Of a stretch of 64,000 nucleotides of DNA, positions 4,552-5,778 are shown in pieces. The position numbers were made by a program, and so were the translations under genes. The notes below the pieces were generated by a model. That model did no database searches, was not told the origin of the DNA, and saw only the letters and a list, made by a program, of their open reading frames with translations. How positions within the stretch are numbered: position 1 is the stretch's first letter; the number at the start of each line of letters is the position of its first letter. The DNA is from Escherichia coli (GTDB lineage Bacteria > Pseudomonadota > Gammaproteobacteria > Enterobacterales > Enterobacteriaceae): NCBI RefSeq assembly GCF_016026235.1, contig NZ_CP065613.1; one strand, written 5' to 3'.

Positions 4552-5670
4552 ATGATCTGGATAATGACGATGGCTCGCCGTATGAACGGTGTTTACGCGG
4601 CATTTATGCTGGTCGCTTTTATGATGGGGGGGGCCGGGGCGCTACAGGCTCCTACATTGAGCTTATTTCTGAGTCGTGAGGTTGGCGCGCAACCTTTCTG
4701 GATCGGACTCTTTTATACGGTGAATGCTATTGCTGGGATCGGCGTAAGCCTCTGGTTGGCAAAACGTTCTGACAGTCAGGGCGATCGGCGAAAACTGATT
4801 ATATTTTGCTGTTTGATGGCTATCGGCAATGCGCTATTGTTTGCATTTAATCGTCATTATCTGACGCTTATCACCTGTGGTGTGCTTCTGGCATCTCTGG
4901 CCAATACGGCAATGCCACAGTTATTTGCTCTGGCGCGGGAATATGCGGATAACTCGGCGCGAGAAGTGGTGATGTTTAGCTCGGTGATGCGTGCGCAGCT
5001 TTCTCTGGCATGGGTTATCGGTCCACCGTTGGCCTTTATGCTGGCGTTGAATTACGGCTTTACGGTGATGTTTTCGATTGCCGCCGGGATATTCACACTC
5101 AGTCTGGTATTGATTGCATTTATGCTTCCGTCTGTGGCGCGGGTAGAACTGCCGTCGGAAAATGCTTTATCAATGCAAGGTGGCTGGCAGGATAGTAACG
5201 TACGGATGTTATTTGTCGCCTCGACGTTAATGTGGACCAGCAACACCATGTACATTATTGATATGCCGTTGTGGATCAGTAGCGAGTTAGGATTGCCAGA
5301 CAAACTGGCGGGTTTCCTGATGGGGACGGCAGCTGGACTGGAAATACCAGCAATGATTCTGGCTGGCTACTATGTCAAACGTTATGGTAAGCGGCGAATG
5401 ATGGTCATAGCAGTGGCGGCAGGAGTACTGTTTTACACCGGATTGATTTTCTTTCATAGCCGTATGGCGTTGATGACGCTGCAACTTTTTAACGCTGTAT
5501 TTATCGGCATTGTTGCGGGTATTGGGATGCTATGGTTTCAGGATTTAATGCCTGGAAGAGCGGGGGCAGCTACCACCTTATTTACTAACAGTATTTCTAC
5601 CGGGGTAATTCTGGCTGGCGTTATTCAGGGAGCAATTGCACAAAGTTGGGGGCACTTTGCTGTCTACTGA
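4552..5670 (+). CDS. setA: Sugar efflux transporter SetA (MFS); here 372 aa because of an in-frame TGA, about 20 codons short of the expected end
   Basis: Translation MIWIMTMARRMNGVYAAFMLVAF... with multiple TM segments. After stop TGA (5668-5670) the same frame continues VIAVISVVALFLTAKVKDV*, consistent with a TGG to TGA change. Confidence 0.85.
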   Translation: MIWIMTMARRMNGVYAAFMLVAFMMGGAGALQAPTLSLFLSREVGAQPFWIGLFYTVNAIAGIGVSLWLAKRSDSQGDRRKLIIFCCLMAIGNALLFAFNRHYLTLITCGVLLASLANTAMPQLFALAREYADNSAREVVMFSSVMRAQLSLAWVIGPPLAFMLALNYGFTVMFSIAAGIFTLSLVLIAFMLPSVARVELPSENALSMQGGWQDSNVRMLFVASTLMWTSNTMYIIDMPLWISSELGLPDKLAGFLMGTAAGLEIPAMILAGYYVKRYGKRRMMVIAVAAGVLFYTGLIFFHSRMALMTLQLFNAVFIGIVAGIGMLWFQDLMPGRAGAATTLFTNSISTGVILAGVIQGAIAQSWGHFAVY

Positions 5671-5778
5671 GTAATTGCGGTTATTTCTGTTGTCGCATTA
5701 TTTTTAACCGCAAAGGTTAAAGACGTTTGATGACGTGGACGATAGCGGAAAGCCCGGTCATTTGACCGGGCAAGGGGA

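Follow-up and report, generated by a model that had tools for sequence, protein, structure and literature searches.

The gene setA lies in the window (the whole 64,000-nt stretch of Escherichia coli DNA analysed here) at its orthologous position, downstream of sgrR and sgrS/sgrT and convergent with leuD. The gene order sgrR - sgrS/sgrT - setA - leuD is the same as at the locus of K-12 SetA, which belongs to the SET family of MFS sugar exporters (TC 2.A.1.20). In E. coli, setA is co-transcribed with sgrS via read-through of the SgrS terminator and stands under the control of SgrR (PMC9765468). A review describes SetA as aiding the recovery of growth in some conditions of glucose-phosphate stress, and calls its exact role "elusive" (PMC4021124). 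The small RNA SgrS and the sgrT gene inside it are both intact in the window, and the terminator-like site of SgrS is present as well (Table 1). The stretch where setA and leuD converge contains an inverted repeat, which probably represents a terminator hairpin shared by both genes and is unaffected by the mutation described below; for lack of a T-run, a consensus terminator scan did not call this site.

Table 1. Coordinates of the features discussed in the text (window positions; changes in setA are relative to K-12)
Feature	Position	Strand	Evidence or remark
1.5-kb insert relative to K-12, between thiB and sgrR	1033-2577; ORF 1239-2075	+	278-aa pentapeptide-repeat protein
SgrS small RNA, intact	4298..4524	+	Rfam RF00534, 230.7 bits, E 2e-66, full model 1-232
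sgrT inside SgrS, intact, 43 codons	4319..4450	+	tblastn, 100% identity to K-12 SgrT over 43 aa
SgrS terminator hairpin and T-run	4495-4517	+	terminator-like site; SgrS comes first in the sgrS-setA transcript
Truncated setA ORF	4552..5670	+	372 sense codons and premature TGA; ORF list and translation; ends ...SWGHFAVY
G8 homopolymer in setA	4626..4633	+	created by the V27G allele (GTG to GGG at 4631); possible slippage site
setA V27G	4631	+	GTG to GGG
setA silent change	4707	+	
setA C230S	5239	+	TGC to AGC; T in sister isolates and all compared alleles
setA N302H	5455	+	
setA W373*	5670	+	TGG to TGA, G to A
Premature stop W373*	5668..5670	+	TGG to TGA, changed base 5670; codon by codon against K-12 and WS3294A
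Orphaned setA 3' end	5671..5730	+	19 codons VIAVISVVALFLTAKVKDV and native TGA at 5728-5730
Inverted repeat GCCCGGTC-ATTT-GACCGGGC	5752..5771	.	between convergent setA and leuD; read from the sequence
leuO 1-nt deletion	ORF 11297-12240, deletion ~11937		GCGGTTTCG to GCGGTTCG, TTT to TT; frame shifts after codon 213, 229-aa product
IS3-family insertion sequence, between mutT and yacG	38423-39854; orfA 39282-39812, orfB 38455-39177	-	absent in K-12
Insert between ampE and aroP	48499-50998		316-aa protein and YagG-like glycoside-pentoside-hexuronide symporter
Insert between aroP and pdhR	52493-56713; ORFs 52983-54764, 54767-55051, 55459-55749, 56152-56448	all +	

The reading frame of setA ends at a TGA codon, behind which the same frame continues through 19 codons (VIAVISVVALFLTAKVKDV) that are identical to residues 374-392 of K-12 SetA. 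A preliminary description of the sequence had pointed out this arrangement, and the ORF list and translation confirm it. An open run of 19 codons has a chance probability of ~0.4, i.e., (61/64)^19, and is unremarkable alone; the case therefore rests on genome comparison. In K-12 MG1655, setA (b0070, YP_025293.1) occupies positions 77621-78799 with 1179 nt and 392 codons, the protein length given in the preliminary description. Aligned to it, positions 4552-5730 of the window are gap-free and collinear over the 1179 nt and show five nucleotide differences, four of which distinguish the encoded protein from K-12 SetA (V27G, C230S, N302H and W373*, the last with 20 residues lost). The closest setA allele in a complete genome, that of strain WS3294A, differs from the window at C230S and W373* only. 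The stop is not shared by these references, both of which have Trp at codon 373, and the sister isolates introduced below carry TGG as well, as expected from the initial proposal that a Trp codon had mutated to TGA. With orthologous sequence in frame behind the stop, the setA of the window is a nonsense allele. Among complete RefSeq E. coli genomes, 3238 match the 61-mer centred on this stop, all with at least one mismatch; the exact 61-mer with the TGA was found in none of these 3238 setA-carrying genomes, and a 39-mer with the TGA occurs in no GTDB species-representative genome.

A difference of one base that is absent from every complete RefSeq E. coli genome might be taken for a sequencing or assembly artefact, with TGG as the true codon 373. 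However, the TGA recurs in Logan assemblies of the runs SRR3000441 and ERR926423 and in the assemblies GCA_018228445.1 and GCA_001907565.1, which are otherwise 0-2 SNPs apart, and base 5670 is not inside a homopolymer. The SRR3000441 assembly is 100% identical to window positions 1552-8670 (7119 nt), whereas GCA_018228445.1 and GCA_001907565.1 are 2 and 1 nt away from the window. This recurrence in independent, read-derived assemblies also answers the question of read-level support for the base, which the preliminary description had raised. We consider an artefact very improbable and rejected a read error at 5670 for practical purposes. The exact 372-aa protein was found on 24 contigs from 33 index blocks, of which 4 blocks had contigs >1 Mb, and is deposited at NCBI as "sugar efflux transporter SetA [Escherichia coli]" (EFK2886366.1 and others; UPI000571B42A). 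Most of the seemingly 372-aa records of the protein entry P0005 (L009-L013) proved to be genes broken off where a contig ends and were dismissed as TGA alleles; among the P0005 records, only the locus L008 and 18 similar places count as such. Two of the cut contigs, both Logan metagenome/run contigs (L010, L011), end exactly with ...TACTG, one base before the G/A of codon 373. This could be the pattern of an assembly-graph bubble if TGG and TGA coexist in the sample, or a coincidence.

The age of the mutation can be placed relative to a second lesion in the window, a 1-nt deletion in leuO. None of 4911 complete RefSeq E. coli genomes has this deletion; in public data, it is found on at least 24 contigs. 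Three near-identical sister isolates carry the leuO frameshift: the assemblies of ERR3331069 and SRR13627082, with 8-9 differences to the window over 16,690 bases (~0.05%), and GCA_901482675.2, with 6 mismatches and 1 gap over 6.7 kb. Each of them has TGC (Cys230) and TGG (Trp373), with G at the position corresponding to 5670. Because these sister isolates of the same lineage keep TGG, TGA is the derived state, and because they share the frameshift yet keep Cys230 and Trp373, the leuO lesion is the older one. C230S and W373* arose together, recently, in a younger sub-clone, and both are usable as clone markers for this sub-lineage. setA accounts for 7% of the length compared, yet two of the five SNPs that separate the window from both ERR3331069 and SRR13627082 are located in it (binomial P = 0.043), a weak hint that constraint on setA is relaxed. 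The window shares 47 genes with K-12, and of these setA and leuO alone are disrupted. No close relative is among 5426 complete RefSeq E. coli genomes, the best of which reaches 98.6% identity over window positions 1-25000. Additionally, GCA_901482675.2, a long-contig assembly, has G7 instead of G8 (at ~555) in the homopolymer run of setA, which would shift the frame at codon 27; this may be true slippage or an error of long reads in the homopolymer.

The residues behind the stop belong to the last transmembrane helix. According to Kyte-Doolittle hydropathy, residues 369-387 form the most hydrophobic 19-mer in the entire SetA protein, and an AlphaFold2 model of full-length SetA (pLDDT 94.1, pTM 0.92), computed with an alignment of 77 family members at 26-59% identity, places the final helix at residues 368-388. 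Both agree with the early suggestion that the last predicted helix is removed. W373* deletes residues 373-392, i.e., 16 of the 21 residues of helix 12 together with the short C-terminal tail, and leaves a stub of five residues. In Foldseek comparisons, the model matched solved 12-helix MFS transporters over nearly its full length, with SotB (6kkl) at a TM-score of 0.84 and further matches to NupG, YegT, NorA, MdfA and LacY; a sequence search of the solved structures with SetA gave no match at E <= 0.01. All 77 full-length homologues (26-59% identity) extend at least 19 residues past the column of residue 372 (median 30), and the alignment columns 371-389 are hydrophobic and fully occupied. The column of Trp373 itself is not conserved and contains mostly Leu, Ile or Tyr; the relevant loss is that of the helix and not of this residue. 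Against the sugar efflux transporter family TIGR00899, the truncated protein still scores 575.4 bits, above the cut-off of 522.3, covering positions 1-356 of 375 compared with 1-375 for K-12 SetA. Truncated SetA thus retains the profile score of the SET family and the orthologous position, and it lacks the complete 12-helix MFS fold with full coverage.

For LacY, truncations reaching helix XII reportedly destabilise and inactivate the permease; a literature search on such truncations found nothing in the collection covered. LacY is likewise a 12-helix MFS permease and one of the structural matches of the SetA model, although its sequence identity to SetA is only ~14%. By this analogy, and given the loss of helix 12, the 372-aa SetA is most likely unstable or inactive.

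These observations suggest the following course of events. Translation of setA ends 20 codons early and yields 11 transmembrane helices plus the five-residue stub in place of the 12-helix MFS fold. Such a product should have difficulty folding or inserting and should end up degraded or inactive, so that the allele is most likely null or strongly hypomorphic. Because setA closes its transcript and runs towards leuD, the mutation should have no polar effect, and the decay of this accessory gene, presumably under weak constraint, spares the genes downstream. The SgrR/SgrS/SgrT arm of the glucose-phosphate stress response stays intact. Altogether, we are confident that W373* is a genuine and recent nonsense mutation in the chromosomal setA of one sub-clone, with a null or strongly hypomorphic allele as its most likely outcome.

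UGA is the leakiest stop codon in E. coli, and an allele that is leaky or otherwise partly functional has to be weighed against a full loss, either through residual activity of the 11-helix protein or through read-through giving a few percent of wild-type SetA. In K-12 reporters, UGA read-through amounted to ~2% at 37 C and 4% at 25 C, with Trp-tRNA(Trp) competing with RF2 (PMC10570021). Insertion of Trp at UGA 373 would recreate the wild-type protein, the 19 codons downstream are fully intact, and the same stop occurs on a second genomic background (L008). The intact codons are, however, equally explained by the youth of the mutation, as the sister isolates are only ~0.05% apart, and against residual activity stands helix 12 being universal in the family (77/77 homologues). 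The RNA fold downstream of the UGA is unremarkable (z = -1.34), i.e., no stimulatory structure is found there. The weak contexts are reportedly UGA-C and UGA-A, whereas the base after this stop is G (UGA-G). Natural E. coli isolates, moreover, carry a more active RF2 than K-12, which also speaks against efficient read-through. We therefore regard a leaky allele as unlikely; if it existed, SetA would be turned down, not off. The main caveat is that a trickle of full-length SetA may arise by read-through, which leaves the full null status of the W373* allele uncertain.

A programmed recoding of the UGA, as selenocysteine or by regulated read-through, has nothing in its favour beyond the codon being UGA. 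The Rfam scan near the setA stop returned no SECIS or other family at E <= 1, and the downstream hairpin is not significant, as noted above. The UGA is not conserved, with 0 of 3238 genomes carrying it and TGG in the sister isolates, and the native stop of setA, 60 nt further downstream, is TGA as well. No tRNA gene is located within the 64-kb window, to which the search for a suppressor was confined; the UGA-suppressor context considered in the preliminary description was not found by Rfam, downstream fold or tRNA search. On these grounds we rejected selenocysteine insertion and programmed read-through, which are scarcely credible here.

Approximately 2160-2185 of the 5426 complete E. coli genomes (~40%) lack setA wholly. 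In strain LF82, which has a locus of the phylogroup-B2 type, sgrT directly adjoins leuD; LF82 has SgrR/SgrS/SgrT without a working SetA, the outcome that is likely in the window too, but the entire gene is missing there, whereas the window keeps 95% of the setA coding sequence. In Shigella sonnei, four inspected loci (~4095 in locus coordinates) carry an IS1 insertion in codon 372 of setA (...GCTGTCTA|GGTGATGCTGCC...), three bases upstream of the base mutated in the window. The insertion creates a TAG and a 371-aa product, and SetA proteins of this length (e.g., P0003/P0007) are encoded on hundreds of S. sonnei contigs. The same C-terminal helix is lost as in the window, with the break one codon upstream; the lesion differs in being an IS insertion instead of a point mutation and in its genomic background. 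In one of these S. sonnei loci (L016), two IS1 transposase ORFs are located at the insertion, and a literature search on setA pseudogenes in Shigella found nothing in the collection covered. Because setA is absent in ~40% of complete E. coli genomes and interrupted by IS1 in S. sonnei, natural E. coli and Shigella can do without it, and the window adds one further case.

Substitution patterns point in the same direction. Between the window and K-12, the ratio of nonsynonymous to synonymous differences is 4:1 in setA and 7:74 in leuABCD (Fisher P = 7e-4), which fits weak purifying selection on setA. At the same time, setA varies unusually little across E. coli: of 3241 genomes, 3228 reach an identity of 99% or more, and the difference between the window and K-12 is 0.4%, compared with 3.6% for the flanking sgrR and 2.7% for leuB. 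Most of the setA differences are nonsynonymous. This combination points to a gene that is young, or has spread recently, and is weakly constrained.

The identical TGA at L008 (GCA_038072715.1) sits on a different background, with 49 of 6093 bases differing from the window and without the pentapeptide-repeat gene insert upstream of sgrR. It goes back either to a second, independent mutation or to recombination over a short patch. Together with the IS1 in the adjacent codon in S. sonnei, this same stop on two unrelated backgrounds raises the idea that loss of helix 12 is convergent and that loss or down-tuning of SetA, the latter with some wild-type protein regained by Trp-tRNA read-through of the UGA, is selected in decaying, possibly enteroinvasive lineages. 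The clone of the window does resemble a decaying lineage, with its leuO frameshift, its IS elements and a hint of serogroup O167 that is taken up below. If the idea were true, it would link sugar efflux and glucose-phosphate stress to a host-restricted lifestyle and provide a natural handle on the physiological role of SetA. The clustering of lesions at codons 372-373 was seen in a biased sample, a single 90%-identity cluster of similar-length proteins, and we did not accept three lesions from such sampling as evidence of selection. C-terminal truncations of SetA could be tolerated or even favoured rather than neutral, in a search biased to the similar-length cluster, and convergence under selection appears improbable to us. 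Ordinary, clone-specific gene decay is our preferred reading, and the truncated product is already public without a flag for the defect. As NCBI names the 372-aa product as an intact SetA, the annotation ought to mark the gene as a probable pseudogene or truncated allele.

The window contains several further segments that distinguish it from K-12 (Table 1). The pentapeptide-repeat protein encoded between thiB and sgrR resembles the Salmonella T3SS effectors PipB2 and PipB weakly, below the threshold, and is nearly private to the lineage, with a 90% cluster of 2 members on 21 contigs. The insert between aroP and pdhR encodes a 593-aa fusion in which Hcp, the tube protein of the T6SS, is joined to an S-type pyocin domain and a DNase domain of the colicin/pyocin type. 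Behind it lie three ORFs of ~95 aa that resemble colicin immunity genes, and the first has a match to the colicin/pyocin immunity family of Pfam; the segment looks like a T6SS Hcp-toxin/immunity island. The exact Hcp-DNase toxin is deposited as EHD3417402.1, numerically near a SetA entry, EHD3417778.1, that is labelled "Escherichia coli O167". These numerically close accessions hint that the lineage may be related to the enteroinvasive serogroup O167. For the 316-aa protein encoded between ampE and aroP no NCBIfam match was obtained, and our guess from its sequence is a GH43-type glycosidase. Several short-read contigs of the lineage are ~40.87 kb long, which would fit assembly breaks at the IS3-family element between mutT and yacG.
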